From Patescibacteria group bacterium (GTDB lineage Bacteria; Patescibacteriota; Minisyncoccia; UBA6257; UBA9933): a stretch of DNA of 64,000 bases. This document shows positions 5,248 through 51,065 of this stretch, piece after piece. The number at the start of each line of letters is the position of its first letter. The first letter of the stretch is position 1. Location of the stretch: positions 51,798 through 115,797 of the forward strand of contig JBBTRV010000004.1 of the NCBI GenBank assembly GCA_038065035.1, written 5' to 3'. The notes under the pieces are model-generated. The model was not told where the DNA came from. It saw nothing but the letters and a program-made list of their open reading frames with translations, and did no database searches. Both the position numbers and the translations under genes were made by a program.

Positions 5248-6428
5248 AAATTCTTCACATAGTCCCGACTTATTTTCCGGCTCATCGCCAAGGCGGGCCG
5301 ATTAAAAGCGTTCACGAATTAAATAAGGGATTGGTTAAATTGGGAACTGATATAACCGTTTATACAACAAATATGGACGCGTCCGGATTTTTAAATGTTC
5401 CGCTTAATCAGGAAGTTAATGTCGATGGTGTAAAAGTTTTTTATTTTCCAATTACATTTAGATTATGGCAATATTCTTTTGCTATGAAAAAAGCACTGGC
5501 GAAAAATGTTGAAAATTTTGATTTAATACATATTACATCTGTTTTCCTTGCGGTTTCAACATTGGGAACTTATTATGCTAAAAGATTTAATAAGCCTTAT
5601 GTTATTTCTCCGCGAGGCAGTTTTATGTTAGAGCCGCTTAAATTTAGCTTTCTAAGGAAGAAAATTTATATAAATTTAATTGAAAAAATAAATTTAGCCG
5701 GCGCTGATGCGATTCATTTTACCGTTGAAAAAGAAAAAGAAGATTATTTGAAATTAAGATTACCTTTAAAGAAAGCTATGATTATTCCTAATAGCATAGA
5801 TGTTGGCGATAAAAAGAAAATTGTTTCGGGGAGTTTTAGAAAAAAGTTTAAAATTTCTGACAGCGCAAAAATTGTGCTTTTTATGGGGCGACTGCATAAA
5901 ATAAAGGGTTTAGATATTTTGATTTCGGCTTTTAGCGAGATAGTTAAAAAAGAGCCGAACTTGGTTTTGGTTTTAGCCGGACCGGACGACGAAGGGTACG
6001 GAAAAAATCTCAAATCTCAAATCTTAAATCTTAAAATTGACGATAAAGTTTTATTTACTGGAATGTTGATAGGAGACGATAAAATCGCGGCTTATCGCGA
6101 AAGTGATGTTTTTGTTTTGCCGTCTTATTCGGAAAATTTCGGAATGTCGGTAGTGGAGGCAATGGCAATAGGTTTGCCCGTTGTGATTACAAAAGGCGTC
6201 GGAATTTCTCCTAATGTTGAGCGCGTCGGCGCCGGAATTGTGATCAAAAAAGACGAGAAGCAATTAACAGCAGCGATTTTGAAGATTTTAAATAATTCGG
6301 AATTAGCAAAAAAAATGGGCGGAAACGGCAGAAAATTAGTTGAAACCGAATTTTCCAGCGATAAAGTGGCTAAAAAATTTATTAAAGAATATAATGAGAT
6401 GATCGCCAATTATGAAAGCCCCAATTAG
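5244..6428 (+). CDS. GT4-family glycosyltransferase
   Basis: N-terminus MKILHIVPTYFP...GGP and a C-terminal ENFGMSVVEAMAIGLPVVITK EX7E-like motif. Confidence 0.75.
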   Translation: MKILHIVPTYFPAHRQGGPIKSVHELNKGLVKLGTDITVYTTNMDASGFLNVPLNQEVNVDGVKVFYFPITFRLWQYSFAMKKALAKNVENFDLIHITSVFLAVSTLGTYYAKRFNKPYVISPRGSFMLEPLKFSFLRKKIYINLIEKINLAGADAIHFTVEKEKEDYLKLRLPLKKAMIIPNSIDVGDKKKIVSGSFRKKFKISDSAKIVLFMGRLHKIKGLDILISAFSEIVKKEPNLVLVLAGPDDEGYGKNLKSQILNLKIDDKVLFTGMLIGDDKIAAYRESDVFVLPSYSENFGMSVVEAMAIGLPVVITKGVGISPNVERVGAGIVIKKDEKQLTAAILKILNNSELAKKMGGNGRKLVETEFSSDKVAKKFIKEYNEMIANYESPN

Positions 6429-7200
6429 CGTCATTATTTTAACTTATAACGAAGAAATTCATATTGAGCGGTTGTTAAAAAATATCGCTGATTTTGCGGA
6501 TGAAATTTTTATTGTTGATTCTTATTCAACAGATAAAACTTTAGAAATAGCTAAAAAATATGGTGTAAAAATTATTCAACATGAATTTGAAAATCAAGCT
6601 CAGCAATTTAACTGGGCTTTGGATAATTTAGAAATCAAAAACGAGTGGATTTTGCGACTTGATGCCGACGAGTATTTGACTCCCGAACTGAAAAAAGAGA
6701 TTAAAGAAAATTTTTCTGCTACGGTTAATGGTTATTATATGAAGCGTCGAGTTTATTTTATGGGGCGGTGGATAAAACATGGCGGTTATTATCCGACTTG
6801 GATTTTGAGATTATTCAGAAAAGGCAAGGCGCGTTCCGAACAAAGAAAAATTGATGAACATATAGTTTTATTGGAGGGTAAGACTGGGAGATTTAAAAAT
6901 GATTTTGCTGACGAAAATAAAAAAGATCTAACTTTTTGGATTGAAAAACATAATAATTATTCTTCCAAGGAAGCAACTGATGTTTTGATTGGGAATTATG
7001 GAAGGGGTTGTAAAAAATATTATTATCGCTTGCCGATCTTTTTCCGCGTATGTGTTTATTTTTGTTATCGCTATTTTATAAGATTAGGATTTTTAGACGG
7101 CAAAGAAGGTTTAATTTTTCATTTTTTGCAGGGATTTTGGTATCGTTTTCTAGTTGATGCGAAAATTTATGAAAAGCGAAAGATTAATAAAAACACTTAA
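6412..7200 (+). CDS. GT2-family glycosyltransferase
   Basis: ISVIILTYNEE...IVDSYSTDKT and a LDADEY DxD motif. Confidence 0.7.
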   Translation: MKAPISVIILTYNEEIHIERLLKNIADFADEIFIVDSYSTDKTLEIAKKYGVKIIQHEFENQAQQFNWALDNLEIKNEWILRLDADEYLTPELKKEIKENFSATVNGYYMKRRVYFMGRWIKHGGYYPTWILRLFRKGKARSEQRKIDEHIVLLEGKTGRFKNDFADENKKDLTFWIEKHNNYSSKEATDVLIGNYGRGCKKYYYRLPIFFRVCVYFCYRYFIRLGFLDGKEGLIFHFLQGFWYRFLVDAKIYEKRKINKNT

Positions 7201-44045: not shown

Positions 44046-45308
44046 ATGCAATCCTACGAAAAAATAGCGAGAATATTGCGCACCGATAAGGATAATATAA
44101 GAAATATTGAAGAAAGACTAGGCGTTTTGACAGGTAAAAAAGGCGTAATGGATAAAATAGCTGAAGATAATGAGCAAATGATAGATAATCGACTTGATGC
44201 AATGGGATTAAACAGACAATCTGCCGCTAAGGAAGTGTATGACACCTTGATTAAGCGCATTGAAGCTGATAATTATTTGCTTTTTGAGGCATTAAGCCGG
44301 CCGATTATAACGGAAATGGCCAGTTCTAATCATGTTCTTGGGGTGGCTAAAGAAATTGCCAAATGCCCGAAAGGATTTTTCATCAAAAAAGAAAAAGCGG
44401 TTGAACTTTTAGAAAGTCAGCCGCCTAAAACCATTATTGAAGCGTTGGGATACAAGGATGTGAAAGAATTAATCAATAAGGAAGATATTTTCGGCATTTA
44501 TAGCGCGCTTCGTTTTTTGGAAGACAAAGATTGGCTCAACAATATTTTTTTCAAGCAATATGAAAATTTAACGCCGGATGATTTTGAAGAAAGGGAAATA
44601 ATCGTTAAAACCTTAGATTATAAATGGGCCTCGGCGGCGCAATCATTTGTTAAAAAGAAACATCATAATATTTCTCATCTTAAAGAAATGGGGGTAGTTT
44701 TCGTTATTCCGGTTACTCTGGGAATTTCAGGGGAATTATTAAGAACGTTTGCTTTAGTTCTTCATTATCTTAATGAAGTTCCTTTTTATTCCAGTCTTTT
44801 CAAAATGTTTGCTGAATCAGACAGGGATAATTTTTCCAATAATTTAATTTCTCTTCTTCGCGGCGATGTTTTTGATGGGCAACTGTCTCCGTCGACAACC
44901 GATAAATCGCAATGGCTGGTAATCCAAAGATATTTGGCAAAAGACGATGAAAACGATTGGCGTTTATTCTTCCCTCATATTAATCCAGAGGCGCTTCACT
45001 GGGAAAGAATGGAAAGAATGCTCGCTCAAACGACCGACATATTAGACGGATTCGCGGTGAATCTCGCTTTTTGGCAGAATTTAAACTGGGTGGGAGACTA
45101 CTTTAAAAGCGATACTGGGATTGATATTTTAGTGAGTTTTAATTTGGTAGATACCGTAATGTCACTGGTAAAAGAAAAAGAAATGGTAAAATATCTTTAT
45201 CATCATGAAGAATCGCTTTGGAATAAGATTTTCATTGAATATTTCGGGGTAGAAAAATTAGAAGAATACGCGAAGAAAAATATCATCAAAGGGTGGTTTG
45301 AACTTTAA
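44046..45308 (+). CDS. Hypothetical protein (420 aa), no recognisable domain
   Basis: Long clean ORF between the PfkB kinase and fba genes with tight spacing. Confidence 0.4.
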   Translation: MQSYEKIARILRTDKDNIRNIEERLGVLTGKKGVMDKIAEDNEQMIDNRLDAMGLNRQSAAKEVYDTLIKRIEADNYLLFEALSRPIITEMASSNHVLGVAKEIAKCPKGFFIKKEKAVELLESQPPKTIIEALGYKDVKELINKEDIFGIYSALRFLEDKDWLNNIFFKQYENLTPDDFEEREIIVKTLDYKWASAAQSFVKKKHHNISHLKEMGVVFVIPVTLGISGELLRTFALVLHYLNEVPFYSSLFKMFAESDRDNFSNNLISLLRGDVFDGQLSPSTTDKSQWLVIQRYLAKDDENDWRLFFPHINPEALHWERMERMLAQTTDILDGFAVNLAFWQNLNWVGDYFKSDTGIDILVSFNLVDTVMSLVKEKEMVKYLYHHEESLWNKIFIEYFGVEKLEEYAKKNIIKGWFEL

Positions 45309-46914: not shown

Positions 46915-47811
46915 ATGATTTATAGGCCTTATTCAGAAAGGATACCAGATGCGCAATATCAGAATGTTTTAAGAGAGATTCTTGAAAATGGGATTGAGGG
47001 AGAGAGCCAGCAGGAAGTTGATTGTATAACAAAAATGGTACCAACTCCGATGCATTTCAGGTTTGAAAATGGTTTTCCAATAATCACCGAACGTGATATT
47101 GGTGGATTTTGGAGACAATCTGTCGGAGAGATATTTGCTTTTATTAATGGGGCGAGAACTTTAAAACAGCTTGAGGAATATGGCTGTTATTGGTGGAAAT
47201 CATGGGGTACACCGGAAAAATGCGCAAAACGTGGACTTGAGCCGGGAGATCTTGGCCCGGGTTCGTACGGCGCGGCATTTCATGATTTTCCAACAGCAGA
47301 AGGAAAACCATTTAATCAGGTTCAGCATGTAATTGAGCAAATTAAAGAATTACCGCATTTGAGGACTCACTTTATATCGCCATGGATTCCGCAATATATT
47401 GGTCGTGGCAAAGGCAAACAGCAAAAAGTAGTTGTCGCTCCTTGTCATGGCTGGATGCAGATTCGCATTTTAGGCAATAAACTTACTTTGGTTATGATTC
47501 AGCGTTCGGCTGATGTTCCCGTTGGTGTTCCGGCGAATATGGTTCAGTACGCGGCTTTAACTCTCGCATTTGCTCTTATAACTGGTTATGAACCGTACGA
47601 ATATATACACGTACTCATTGACGCCCATATTTACGAAAACCAGATTTCTTATGTGAAAGAGATATTAAAGAGAGAGCCGCGAAAATTTCCAACACTTGAA
47701 ATTCGTCCAGATATCAATTTTAAAGATATATTTGAATTTCATAGCGGAAACTTTGTTCTATCTGACTATGATCCTTATCCTGCAATTAAAGGTATTCCGG
47801 TAGCAATATGA
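46915..47811 (+). CDS. thyA: Thymidylate synthase (ThyA family)
   Basis: APCHGWMQI catalytic Cys, QRSADVPVGVPANMVQY with the dUMP-type Asn, and C-terminal GIPVAI. AAAGGAGG RBS. Confidence 0.85.
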   Translation: MIYRPYSERIPDAQYQNVLREILENGIEGESQQEVDCITKMVPTPMHFRFENGFPIITERDIGGFWRQSVGEIFAFINGARTLKQLEEYGCYWWKSWGTPEKCAKRGLEPGDLGPGSYGAAFHDFPTAEGKPFNQVQHVIEQIKELPHLRTHFISPWIPQYIGRGKGKQQKVVVAPCHGWMQIRILGNKLTLVMIQRSADVPVGVPANMVQYAALTLAFALITGYEPYEYIHVLIDAHIYENQISYVKEILKREPRKFPTLEIRPDINFKDIFEFHSGNFVLSDYDPYPAIKGIPVAI

Positions 47812-47821
47812 AATAAAGGAG

Positions 47822-48796
47822 GTGAAATATATGAAAGAACTTTCCATAGTCGTTGCTATAAATCAGAATGGTGTGATTGGTTGCAAAGGTGAAATTCCCT
47901 GGTATCTTCCGTCTGACTTAAAACGTTTTGCTGATTTAACTAGCGGTCATCCGGTAATTATGGGTAGAAAAACTTACGAATCTGTCATTGAAAGGTTAGG
48001 ACATCCCTTAAAAAACAGAACAAATATAATTCTCACAAATAATGGGGATTTCAAGATCGCAGAAAGTTGCAAAATAGTTTCTTCTTTTGAAGAAGCCATA
48101 GAAGTTGCTGAAAAAGAAGTTGGTTCCGAGGAAATTTTTATTATAGGCGGAGCTGAAATTTATAAATTAGCGTTGCCGCGATCCACCAAAATGTATATTA
48201 CTAAGGTGAACTCTGAATGTGATGGGGATGTTTTCTTTCCTGATTATAACAGGAAGGAATGGAAATTAGTATTTGCTAAAAATCTTGTCTATGATAAAGA
48301 TACTTTTAAATCAACTTTCCTTATCTATAAGAGAAAAAAAGAAACATTTCTTAATTTTGCTCATGCAAGAGATACTCAACAGGAATCTCTTATGGAAAAA
48401 ATAAAAAAAGACGGAGTTTGTCCTTTTTGCAGGGAGAATCTTGAGAAGTATCATCCTCGGCCGATTATCAAAGAAGGCGAATGGTGGGTTGTCACTGCGA
48501 ACATGTTTCCTTATGAAGGAACAAGTATTCACCTCCTTTTCATCTACAAAAACCATGCTGTGACGATTCGTGAGGTTGAATCTAATGAAGCTAAGATTGA
48601 GCTTTGGGATTTGATTTCATGGGCAACGACACAATACAAGATTGATGGTGGAGCCTTTTTTGTTCGGTTTGGAGATACTGAACGAACAGGCGGAAGCGTT
48701 AATCATCTTCACGCTCAGTTAATTGTCGGTGAGGCAGAAAGGTCTGGAAATGCAGAGTCTCTAAAAGTAAAATTGGGATATAAAAGGAAAAAATAA
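47822..48796 (+). CDS. Dihydrofolate reductase fused to a C-terminal HIT-superfamily (GalT-branch, HxHxQ) domain
   Basis: N-terminus LSIVVAINQNGVIGCKGEIPWYLPSDLKRF (DHFR). C-terminus CPFC...NHLHAQLIVG (Cys knuckle plus HxHxQ). Confidence 0.7.
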   Translation: MKYMKELSIVVAINQNGVIGCKGEIPWYLPSDLKRFADLTSGHPVIMGRKTYESVIERLGHPLKNRTNIILTNNGDFKIAESCKIVSSFEEAIEVAEKEVGSEEIFIIGGAEIYKLALPRSTKMYITKVNSECDGDVFFPDYNRKEWKLVFAKNLVYDKDTFKSTFLIYKRKKETFLNFAHARDTQQESLMEKIKKDGVCPFCRENLEKYHPRPIIKEGEWWVVTANMFPYEGTSIHLLFIYKNHAVTIREVESNEAKIELWDLISWATTQYKIDGGAFFVRFGDTERTGGSVNHLHAQLIVGEAERSGNAESLKVKLGYKRKK

Positions 48797-48811: not shown

Positions 48812-48850
48812 AAAGCCCTTCACGACTAAAAAATCGTGAAGGGCTTCTTT
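48812..48850. terminator. Bidirectional rho-independent terminator between convergent genes
   Basis: aaagcccttcacga-ctaaaaaa-tcgtgaagggcttt, with A/T runs on both sides. Confidence 0.7.
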
Positions 48851-48860
48851 AATTTTGAGC

Positions 48861-49715
48861 TTATTCTACTAAAACAAGCTCAACTCCTTTATATTTTAGT
48901 ATTTCTTGTCCATCAAGGACCGCATATCCTTGATGAAAATAACACTTTTTTATGCCAGTTCTGGCAATCAATTTAGCGCAGGGAGGACACGGGAAATCAG
49001 TTATGAAAATATCTGTCCCCAGTAGGGCAATTCCTCTTTTTGCCGCTTCTGCAATAACCGTTGCTTCTGCATGCTCTGCTGTTGAAAGTTCAATATGAAT
49101 ACCTCGTTTGAAAATGCTGCGAGGGTCGCCGAAGACAGATGGCATTTGCGGGTCGGGAAGATGTTGGTTATGCGCCATTATGATTATTTCTCCATTTTTG
49201 ATAACGGCGGCTGATGTTTGTCGCCACCAGTCAAAGCTTTTTTGAGATTCTTGTATAATCTTCTCCATTATTTCTTTCTCAAAGTCGCTTAGAGAAATAA
49301 TCCTGTGGACTTCCACCTTCTTTTTTTCTTCTACATTATCACGATGCCATCTGAGAAAGATTGGCATAAAGATAGCTTCCTTTTCCTTAAAATATCTATC
49401 TATAATCGCCCGAGATATGTCTTCGCTTGGCGCTATTATTTTAAGTGGTGGATCTATTAGCGCGCGGATAATTTTCTGATTTAATACTTCAACAGAGGCA
49501 AAAGGAAACCATTCTTCAATTGCTTTGATTGTCATTTTTGGCGGAAGGGCCCTGATGGAATCTTTTCGTTTCAGGTAATCAAACTCTGGAAGAAAATTTT
49601 CAAGAATTTCATCTCCTATTAGATATATTGTATTGCTATATATTAAATTATCAAATAAGAAATTGAAATATCCTTTATGGAGAACTGGAATATAGGCAAT
49701 AATAATTGTTTTCAT
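48861..49715 (-). CDS. dCMP/cytidine deaminase-family protein with a ~130-aa N-terminal extension
   Basis: C-terminal HAEATVIAEAAKRG...PCPPCAKLI Zn-binding HAE/PCxxC motifs. Confidence 0.7.
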   Translation of the reverse strand: MKTIIIAYIPVLHKGYFNFLFDNLIYSNTIYLIGDEILENFLPEFDYLKRKDSIRALPPKMTIKAIEEWFPFASVEVLNQKIIRALIDPPLKIIAPSEDISRAIIDRYFKEKEAIFMPIFLRWHRDNVEEKKKVEVHRIISLSDFEKEIMEKIIQESQKSFDWWRQTSAAVIKNGEIIIMAHNQHLPDPQMPSVFGDPRSIFKRGIHIELSTAEHAEATVIAEAAKRGIALLGTDIFITDFPCPPCAKLIARTGIKKCYFHQGYAVLDGQEILKYKGVELVLVE

Positions 49716-50314
49716 TGCTTGCCCTCCTGTATCTCTTTTAGCTTTTCTTCAATCAGCTTTATAAAATCATTTGTCAGATTTTTTGCGAAATTGTGAATAC
49801 CTTGCGTATGTAGTATCCGAATTTTCGCAGTAGTGCTAGTAATAGCTTGGGGTTCAAGAAGCGCCACTTTACCGCATAGTTTCTCTCTCTCTCTTATACC
49901 TTCCTCGCTATGTCTTGAAGTTTTTGATAAAACTAAAACATCAGGTTTTACAGTATTGATGAGATGATATTGCGGAGCGTTGTGTGGCTTTAATACAATT
50001 ACATCGACATGTCTTAGATGGGCGAGCACTGATATGCGTTCTATCTCCGGCACAACTGGACGATTTGGGCCTTTCCGCGCTCTAATTTTTTCATCACTAT
50101 CAACGCCGACTATCAAAATATCGCCCATTTTCTTGGCTTTCTCCAGATATTCGGCATGGCCGATATGGAAAATATCAAAAGCTCCGGAAGTAAGCACTAT
50201 TTTTAGTCCCATTTCCTTCCAATATTCTACAAGCATGGATAGTCTTCCGTAATCGGTAATAAATCTTTCTTTAAAACTAGTTTCATCTCCAAAAATTCCA
50301 GTATTAATTGCCAT
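49712..50314 (-). CDS. Cytidylyltransferase-like (HIGH-motif) nucleotidyltransferase
   Basis: SGAFDIFHIGHAEYLEKAKKMGDILIVGVDSDEKI resembles the TagD/RfaE-II/RibL family signature. Confidence 0.6.
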   Translation of the reverse strand: MAINTGIFGDETSFKERFITDYGRLSMLVEYWKEMGLKIVLTSGAFDIFHIGHAEYLEKAKKMGDILIVGVDSDEKIRARKGPNRPVVPEIERISVLAHLRHVDVIVLKPHNAPQYHLINTVKPDVLVLSKTSRHSEEGIREREKLCGKVALLEPQAITSTTAKIRILHTQGIHNFAKNLTNDFIKLIEEKLKEIQEGKQ

Positions 50315-50471: not shown

Positions 50472-51065
50472 ATGAATATTAAGCGCGATTTGGAATTTTT
50501 ATATGAAGTCGGTTCTTTCAGGTTTTTGCAAAGAACCTGGAAACAATTTTTAAATCCTGATTTTCAAAATATATCAGAGCACACCTTAAGAGTGCTCTGG
50601 ATTTCTTTAATTTTGGCAAAATATGAAGGCGTTAAAAATTGCGAAAAATTATTAAAAATGGCATTAGTTCATGATTTATCGGAAAGCAGAAGCGGAGATG
50701 TAAATTATCTGTCAAGGCAATATTGCGAAAGAATGGAAGATATGGCAATTAATGATATTTTTAAAAATACTATTTTAGAAAATGAATTTATTAAGCTTTG
50801 GCAGGAATATGAAAAAAAGAAATCTTTGGAGGCAAAAATCATCAAAGACGCCGATAATCTGGATGTTGATTTAGAATTATGCGAACAAGAAGCAAGGGGG
50901 CATAAGTTAAAGAAAATATGGTTAAAAAATCGCCAAAGGGCGGTTTATGAAAAATTATACACAACATCTGCCAAGAAATTCTGGAAAGAAATTATTAAAT
51001 CCAGTCCTCATGATTGGCATTTAAACGCCAGAAATCGCTTTAACAACGGTGACTGGAAAAAGTGA
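50472..51065 (+). CDS. HD-domain phosphohydrolase (YfbR-like 5'-deoxynucleotidase)
   Basis: HTLRV...LVHDLSESRSGD is an H...HD...D motif. Confidence 0.65.
   Translation: MNIKRDLEFLYEVGSFRFLQRTWKQFLNPDFQNISEHTLRVLWISLILAKYEGVKNCEKLLKMALVHDLSESRSGDVNYLSRQYCERMEDMAINDIFKNTILENEFIKLWQEYEKKKSLEAKIIKDADNLDVDLELCEQEARGHKLKKIWLKNRQRAVYEKLYTTSAKKFWKEIIKSSPHDWHLNARNRFNNGDWKK

Follow-up and report, generated by a model that had tools for sequence, protein, structure and literature searches.

Does a Patescibacteria gene that reads as dihydrofolate reductase (DHFR) followed by a histidine triad (HIT) domain encode a real fusion protein, and what might the HIT half do beside thymidylate synthase? The gene lies in a 64,000-nt stretch of contig JBBTRV010000004.1 (positions 51,798 to 115,797, forward strand; assembly GCA_038065035.1), which we call the window and whose own coordinates are used throughout. 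The host, a member of the candidate phyla radiation (CPR), is an uncultivated, ultra-small bacterium. DHFR is among the best-studied enzymes, and to our knowledge very few natural DHFR fusions are known. We find that the DHFR–HIT open reading frame (ORF) is a genuine, natural 'Rosetta-stone' fusion and that its C-terminal half belongs to a divergent, unnamed, lineage-specific, single-repeat subfamily of the HIT superfamily. The explanation that we favor as a whole, with moderate confidence, is a natural FolA–HIT fusion whose C-terminal half would be an active Hint/Fhit-type HIT enzyme within a pyrimidine-deoxynucleotide gene cluster.

The mechanically called ORF (47822..48796, + strand) opens with GTG and runs for 324 codons without a stop or frameshift. 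Translation almost certainly starts at ATG 47831, because GTG 47822 overlaps the Shine–Dalgarno sequence. This start gives a 321-aa protein (MKELS…), the same length as an identical deposited protein (P0121, from an NCBI Patescibacteria metagenome-assembled genome, MAG) labeled 'dihydrofolate reductase', a public label that misses half of the protein. An earlier note on this DNA had described a single uninterrupted 324-codon ORF holding a complete DHFR and a C-terminal part with CPFC and HLHAQ motifs, with thyA next door across what proves to be a 19-nt gap; this description was borne out, with ATG 47831 the likelier start. The gene contains the following elements.

47815..47822, + strand: Shine–Dalgarno sequence AAAGGAGG, 8 nt before ATG 47831 and overlapped by GTG 47822
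47831..48334, + strand: DHFR domain of the FolA type, aa 1-168 (PF00186, E 3e-52)
48334..48340, + strand: domain junction, a run of seven A (A7; AGA AAA AAA GAA, …YKRKKETF…), without a linker
48335..48793, + strand: HIT domain, aa 169-321, ~150 aa, a single repeat
48419..48430, + strand: CPFC, aa 197-200 (Cys197, Cys200), a probable zinc knuckle with His242 and His292
48704..48718, + strand: HIT motif HLHAQ, aa 292-296 (His292, His294, Gln296), preceded by GGSV (Ser289)

Contigs from three independent data sets (GCA_964368375.1, ERR3858113, and SRR32696705) carry the whole gene, A7 junction included, at 100% identity and with no frameshift, and 7 contigs, drawn from at least 3 independent samples, encode the exact protein. 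The same architecture recurs in other genomes: a word-indexed search returned ~70 further full-length homologues (295-344 aa, at least 92% query coverage, 33-65% identity), and an exhaustive hidden Markov model search covering 1.84 billion representatives at 50% identity found both domains in 89 of the 150 best representatives. The fusion at locus L006 (we use L-numbers for loci and P-numbers for proteins) has no homopolymer at its junction, and the same is true of some other fusions.

The arrangement of folA and HIT genes in related loci forms a graded series. The two genes are separated by a 75-90-nt spacer in L007, L021, L061, and L069; in L019, L036, L057, and L070, the folA stop and the HIT start overlap in different frames within an A-rich stretch; and the genes are fused in frame in the window, L004, L005, L006, L010, and L015. 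On this series, the fusion came about when the folA stop was lost in a short folA/HIT overlap. A one-nucleotide change in the overlap suffices, making the fusion evolutionarily easy, and ~9 fused/stand-alone changes on the domain tree (an approximate count by neighbor joining) point to several gains or losses. When stand-alone HIT proteins are aligned with the fusions, their N-termini fall on the residue right after the DHFR C-terminus (…IYKRKK/ETFLNFAHAR compared to MAKIKKTQYLDFTHAR), leaving no linker between the domains, and the full-length AlphaFold model likewise has no disordered linker (predicted local distance difference test score, pLDDT, 95.8; predicted template-modeling score, pTM, 0.75).

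The A7 run also has the form of an in-frame X XXY YYZ slippery heptamer (A AAA AAA), at which a -1 shift would stop after four codons (…KRKKRNIS, then stop) and give a stand-alone DHFR. Inspection by eye revealed no convincing downstream structure that might stimulate slippage at A7, and the heptamer is probably a by-product of the Lys-rich, AT-rich sequence.

The N-terminal half is an ordinary FolA-type DHFR of family PF00186 and looks active. The Pfam model DHFR_1 (PF00186) matches aa 4-168 over profile positions 2-159 of 159 (E 3e-52; 176.9 bits compared to a cut-off of 25), solved bacterial DHFRs align along the whole length of this half (E 2.5e-37), and the domain is modeled by AlphaFold2 with a pLDDT of ~96. 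The acid of the PW-x-LP-x-(D/E)-L motif (IPWYLPSDL, catalytic Asp29) and the NADPH/folate-binding GRKT, Arg, and GG motifs (VIMGRKT, Arg63, and IIGGAEIY) are all present. Across 70 fusions, I16, G17, P23, W24, D29, F33, T37, T48, L60, and R63 are invariant, the catalytic D29 among them.

For the C-terminal half, we collected more than 150 stand-alone homologues (131-179 aa), nearly all from Patescibacteria. Among 120 homologues, Pfam matched HIT (PF01230, E<0.01) in 73, DcpS_C in 51, DUF4931_N in 17 (weakly), and CwfJ_C_1 in 11. A profile of the family reached HIT chains in the PDB, with Hint/Fhit-type chains at E 5e-5 to 1e-3, Rv2613c at 0.037, and GalT at 0.6. An AlphaFold model of the domain built from the family alignment (pLDDT 93.7) placed Hint proteins at the top of a Foldseek search (E 4e-6); the model and the search together show the HIT alpha+beta fold, extended by a helix at the N-terminus and by a basic tail (LKVKLGYKRKK) at the C-terminus. 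C197, F199, C200, Y207, W219, N224, P227, Y228, H242, R279, G281, H292, and H294 are invariant in this half, and Ser/Thr289 and V290 are nearly so. The stretch HLHAQLI (aa 292-298) fits the pattern H-phi-H-phi-(H/Q)-phi-phi, with H292 and H294 kept in every one of 120 stand-alone and 70 fused sequences, and the Cys-x-x-Cys/His/His set probably forms a zinc site. With its invariant His-x-His, a Ser or Thr three positions earlier, and the Cys-x-x-Cys/His metal site, this half shows the residue pattern of a working HIT enzyme and is most likely active. A phage origin was rejected, as no HIT homologue was found in the phage collections INPHARED and IMG/VR. We are highly confident of the anatomy, the origin of the fusion, and the placement of the HIT family taken jointly.

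What surrounds the gene is more constant than the fusion itself. The neighboring features in the window are as follows.

46915..47811, + strand: thyA, thymidylate synthase, first gene of the operon (PF00303 E 1e-62; TIGR03284 165 bits compared to a cut-off of 108)
48812..48847, both strands: bidirectional intrinsic terminator with stems of 13 to 16 bp and T-runs on both strands
48861..49715, - strand: convergent neighbor, here called DeamX, with an unassigned N-terminal domain of ~140 aa and a dCMP-deaminase domain (HAE, PCxxC)
49712..50314, - strand: nucleotidyltransferase (NTase) of the cytidylyltransferase family, RfaE-domain-II/ECT-like, with the HxGH motif FHIGH (PF01467 E 6e-18)
50472..51065, + strand: HD-domain protein, YfbR-like 5'-deoxynucleotidase (PF13023 E 7e-26; PF12917 E 8e-10)

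The thyA gene is separate from the fusion gene, ending in TGA at 47809-47811, 19 nt before the fusion start at 47831, which has its own Shine–Dalgarno sequence. The ThyA sequence shows both the Asn that specifies dUMP (…GVPAN…) and a catalytic Cys (APCH). The terminator at 48812..48847 is common to the thyA-folA::HIT operon and the convergent deaminase/NTase operon; an Rfam scan of the window returned a single tRNA and nothing near the DHFR–HIT locus. The deaminase domain of DeamX (aa 147-261) matches PF00383 at E 3e-12 and the dCMP deaminase 4p9c in the PDB at E 6e-13, and members of the DeamX family are 280-310 aa long. The NTase (~190-200 aa) matches TIGR02199 at E 6e-34 (116.8 bits compared to a cut-off of 181.5, with no equivalog cut-off reached) and the ethanolamine-phosphate cytidylyltransferase 3elb at E 1e-23. 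Its gene overlaps that of DeamX by 4 nt, and the pair is kept CPR-wide.

We scored synteny with phmmer in 80 loci from GTDB species representatives. The thyA gene lay at most 900 nt upstream of the HIT gene, on the same strand, in 79 of the 80 loci and was directly adjacent in 70. In 76 loci the first recognized feature past the HIT gene was DeamX, and 74 loci contained the NTase. A folA gene was found somewhere in 63 loci, in one of three positions (the thyA–HIT interval, divergently upstream, or beyond the NTase); it fell between thyA and HIT in 9, with fusion in 2 of those. Less frequent members were dut (38 loci), tmk (13), and an HD 5'-deoxynucleotidase-like gene (5), the last being an occasional neighbor present in L004 and a few other loci. 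Five further contigs with a fused or stand-alone HIT gene showed the order thyA(+), optional folA(+), HIT(+), and converging DeamX(-) and NTase(-). DHFR is thus a frequent but mobile member of the cluster, and the near-constant presence of thyA and of the deaminase/NTase genes identifies these as the fixed partners of HIT.

Several observations on these clusters stand apart from the argument. The N-terminal domain of DeamX is conserved in homologues from L004-L089, with invariant P10, H13, Y16, K51, F120, and R122 and a motif (aYiPVlHxGY … iRal … PxED … FLRW) that recalls HxGH of class-I nucleotidyltransferases. The domain had no match in Pfam at E<=10, in a phmmer search of the PDB, or with a profile of 16 homologues against the PDB, and a word-indexed homologue search gave just 2 matches. 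A defense-system reading of DeamX was rejected, with NF041025 scoring 43.8 bits compared to a cut-off of 400 and the housekeeping synteny pointing the other way. A second, far more divergent HIT paralogue lies near the first HIT gene in 31 of 89 related loci (L011, L013, L014, L017, L018, L022-L034, L041-L050, L055, L056, L059, L062, L065, L068, L070, and L078), mostly ~150-700 nt downstream of the first and in a few loci farther away or upstream. Its motif is HxHx(N/Q/H), as in HLHFNLWVPN, HLHAHIQVPD, and HLHFQLQVPD, and in L011, L032, and L059 two HIT domains stand in tandem in one protein of 280-330 aa. Of five second-HIT proteins tested, four had no Pfam match, and the fifth gave sub-threshold matches to HIT (E 0.022), DUF4931_N (E 0.031), and DcpS_C (E 0.049). 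The 64-kb window has no second paralogue and no other HIT gene. Downstream of the DHFR–HIT fusion in L004, a 166-aa ORF (6070-6570, + strand) resembles a degenerate HIT paralogue that keeps CGFC, has CTHYFES in place of the triad, and may be catalytically dead.

Labels from outside the CPR (Verrucomicrobiae, Bdellovibrionales, Acidimicrobiales, or Dehalococcoidia) are attached to a few cluster-bearing contigs (L006, L039, and L052; proteins P0140 and P0164). L006 and L039 have the gene order typical of CPR, and L052 ends just after HIT; these labels may reflect mis-binning or horizontal transfer. Elsewhere in the window, a 420-aa ORF (44046-45308, + strand) flanked by genes for a PfkB-family kinase and for a class-II fructose-bisphosphate aldolase had no recorded Pfam match and no NCBIfam match.

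What, then, could the fused protein do? ThyA would make dihydrofolate and the DHFR half would recycle it, a task for which this half is seen to carry every motif it should need. The HIT half would be a nucleotidyl hydrolase, phosphorylase, or transferase working through a covalent nucleoside monophosphate (NMP)–His294 intermediate, and we infer that it acts like a Hint/Fhit-type enzyme, unlike GalT. All of its neighbors handle pyrimidine (deoxy)nucleotides (the dCMP-deaminase domain, the cytidylyltransferase-family enzyme, dUTPase, dTMP kinase, and deoxynucleotidase) and the substrates of the pathway are monophosphates; thus, monophosphate release is the simplest role. The HIT half may release a nucleoside monophosphate (or diphosphate), namely (d)CMP, dUMP, or dTMP, from a nucleotide conjugate, candidates being a dNTP, a dinucleoside polyphosphate, or a (d)CDP-X product of the NTase, and the released nucleotide would feed or police the pool of dCMP, dUMP, and dTMP on which the deaminase and ThyA draw. 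We propose this pyrimidine-nucleotide role only tentatively. A larger scheme, speculative and in our estimate improbable, is that the first HIT protein, the often adjacent second HIT protein, DeamX, and the NTase form an undescribed CPR-wide route that makes or controls the dUMP/dCMP supply for ThyA by nucleotidyl-transfer chemistry, with the DHFR–HIT fusion marking a physical thymidylate-synthesis complex. For example, the NTase might make a (d)CDP conjugate from (d)CTP that HIT would cleave to (d)CMP for deamination.

Several points weigh against the favored explanation of an active FolA–HIT fusion enzyme in a pyrimidine-deoxynucleotide cluster. The C-terminal sequence of the window protein falls below every Pfam threshold (the best match, DcpS_C of the HIT clan, scored 15.2 bits compared to 24, E 0.03) and by itself reached HIT chains in the PDB at E 0.2, so that its placement as a HIT protein rests on profiles and predicted fold. 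The substrate of the HIT half is guessed from neighbor genes alone, and our literature search found no experiment on any member of the family. In genomes as small as those of CPR, genes may stay together for co-expression without serving one pathway, and the dUTPase and dCMP-deaminase routes to dUMP appear complete in the clusters, with no obvious 'missing step'. The event counts, finally, come from a quick neighbor-joining tree of 191 domains and are approximate.

The rival that survives best holds that the HIT half is a housekeeping Hint-like enzyme, a generic purine nucleoside phosphoramidase or acyl-AMP hydrolase, which ended up in the thyA operon and fused to DHFR only because reduced genomes pack their operons tightly, with no coupling of pathways. 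We consider this unlikely, if worth keeping in mind. The closest sequence and fold matches are indeed Hint proteins, the Ser-x-x-His-x-His signature is Hint-like, and the sole HIT gene in the 64-kb window could be the genome's only Hint; moreover, the fusion arises trivially from overlapping genes and is reversible (~9 changes on the approximate tree). However, identity to Hint proteins is just ~20-25%, and the family has invariants of its own (Y207, W219, N224, P227, Y228, and R279) together with the N-terminal helix and basic C-terminal tail. Adjacency of thyA and HIT, moreover, holds in 79 of 80 species across phylum-level CPR diversity while folA moves, a conservation stronger than for most operon partners.

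Less probable again is the proposal, which the earlier note had made, that the C-terminal half is a transferase or phosphorylase of the GalT/Ap4A-phosphorylase type, diagnosed by HxHxQ, and couples folate recycling to nucleotide transfer. The window protein does read HLHAQ, but the assignment to the GalT branch did not hold. The fifth motif residue is variable: it was 64 H, 16 Q, 3 N, and 1 E in the 89 fusion representatives, 51 H and 19 Q in the ~70 fusions from the word-indexed search, and 23 H and 95 Q in stand-alone proteins. Near relatives differ at this position (P0123 HLHAQ compared to P0124 HLHAH; P0177 HLHAH compared to P0178 HLHAQ), and the tree of 191 domains requires ~24 changes, again an approximate figure. 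No member of the 120-sequence family sample matched the GalT, ATP_transf, or Ap4A-phosphorylase models of Pfam, and Apa2 was absent from the matches of the family profile to the PDB, where the best matches were Hint/Fhit-type. With a variable fifth residue and a single-repeat architecture, the basis for a GalT-branch label is gone. H and Q are most likely interchangeable at the fifth position in this family, and with such flips a reading of HxHxQ or HxHxH is no dependable guide to the HIT branch. Nor does the sequence tell hydrolysis from phosphorolysis; the HxHxH protein Rv2613c is a phosphorylase.

We think it very improbable that the HIT half is a non-catalytic nucleotide sensor or scaffold that regulates ThyA, DHFR, and deaminase or brings them together in a thymidylate 'metabolon'. 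HIT proteins can work through protein–protein contacts, as E. coli HinT reportedly does with DadA. The linker-free fusion with its moderately high full-length pTM of 0.75 would suit a scaffold, as would the second, sometimes degenerate, HIT paralogue held by many clusters. M. hominis HinT is described as interacting with P60/P80 (PMC539234). Against this proposal, the nucleophilic His and its neighbors are invariant in ~190 sequences, as is typical of an active enzyme. Finally, the notion that an indel error in the A7 homopolymer has joined what are really two neighboring genes, folA and HIT, prompted by the position of A7 exactly at the domain junction, by the stand-alone DHFR ending …KRKKRNIS that one added A would yield, and by the out-of-frame folA/HIT overlaps in A-rich sequence of relatives, is close to refuted and was rejected, given identical DNA from independent reads and assemblies, dozens of in-frame fusions in other lineages, some of them homopolymer-free, and an in-frame reading that restores the conserved HIT N-terminus without a gap.

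Our literature search found no description of the DHFR–HIT architecture, of thyA-linked HIT proteins, or of the thyA-HIT-deaminase-NTase cluster. Automated pipelines have already seen both halves, as JGI labels P0170 and P0221 'dihydrofolate reductase/Ap4A HIT family hydrolase'. A different fusion, of DHFR with a GNAT acetyltransferase domain (~327 aa), occurs in P0217 and P0235, for example in a Rikenellaceae MAG; P0259, a possible triple fusion, was rejected as a synthetic GFP–DHFR construct. Recurrent DHFR–HIT fusion together with near-universal thyA–HIT adjacency across Patescibacteria is a classic Rosetta-stone signal, which suggests that an uncharacterized HIT subfamily takes part in the thymidylate/pyrimidine-deoxynucleotide metabolism of nucleotide-scavenging organisms. 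The conserved cluster, rather than the easy fusion, is the real lead, and a small soluble enzyme with a defined catalytic His offers a testable entry point into the CPR nucleotide economy and the roles of HIT proteins in bacteria.

Among known systems, the bifunctional DHFR–TS enzymes of protists and plants also join DHFR covalently to a thymidylate enzyme, following gene adjacency and pathway coupling. Here, in contrast, ThyA is encoded by a separate upstream gene across the 19-nt spacer and the partner of DHFR is a C-terminal HIT domain. GalT-branch enzymes (GalT, the ADP-glucose phosphorylase At5g18200, and yeast Apa1/2) have two HIT-like repeats per chain with a fixed Q, their pseudo-dimer of tandem repeats comprising roughly 300-350 aa, whereas the HIT half described here is one ~150-aa repeat in which Q is not fixed and which has no significant similarity to them. 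The M. tuberculosis Ap4A phosphorylase Rv2613c (PDB 3ano) differs in having HxHxH, in its identity of 19%, and in lacking linkage to thyA or folA.

The best profile and fold matches are to Hint-branch and zinc-containing HIT proteins (PF01230; PDB 3r6f, 3oj7, and 5uvm; human Hint1/2), which share the single HIT repeat, the N-terminal CxxC, the Ser-Val-x-His-x-His signature, and presumably the covalent NMP-His mechanism. The window protein departs from them in its ~20-25% identity, extra N-terminal helix, basic C-terminal tail, and place in the thyA cluster, and the third His of the Hint HxHxHxx motif is Q in the window protein, although it is H in most fusions. From a manual alignment to the rabbit and human Hint sequences, we take Ser289 to match Hint Ser107 and Asn224 to replace the ribose-binding Asp43. 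Gly281 presumably replaces the phosphate-binding Asn99 in the same alignment, with Arg279 two residues before it. NitFhit of C. elegans and Drosophila (PDB 1ems, itself among the matches) differs in its nitrilase partner, Fhit branch, domain order, and taxon but resembles the window protein in its basic design: a HIT domain fused to an enzyme that is elsewhere separate but functionally linked.

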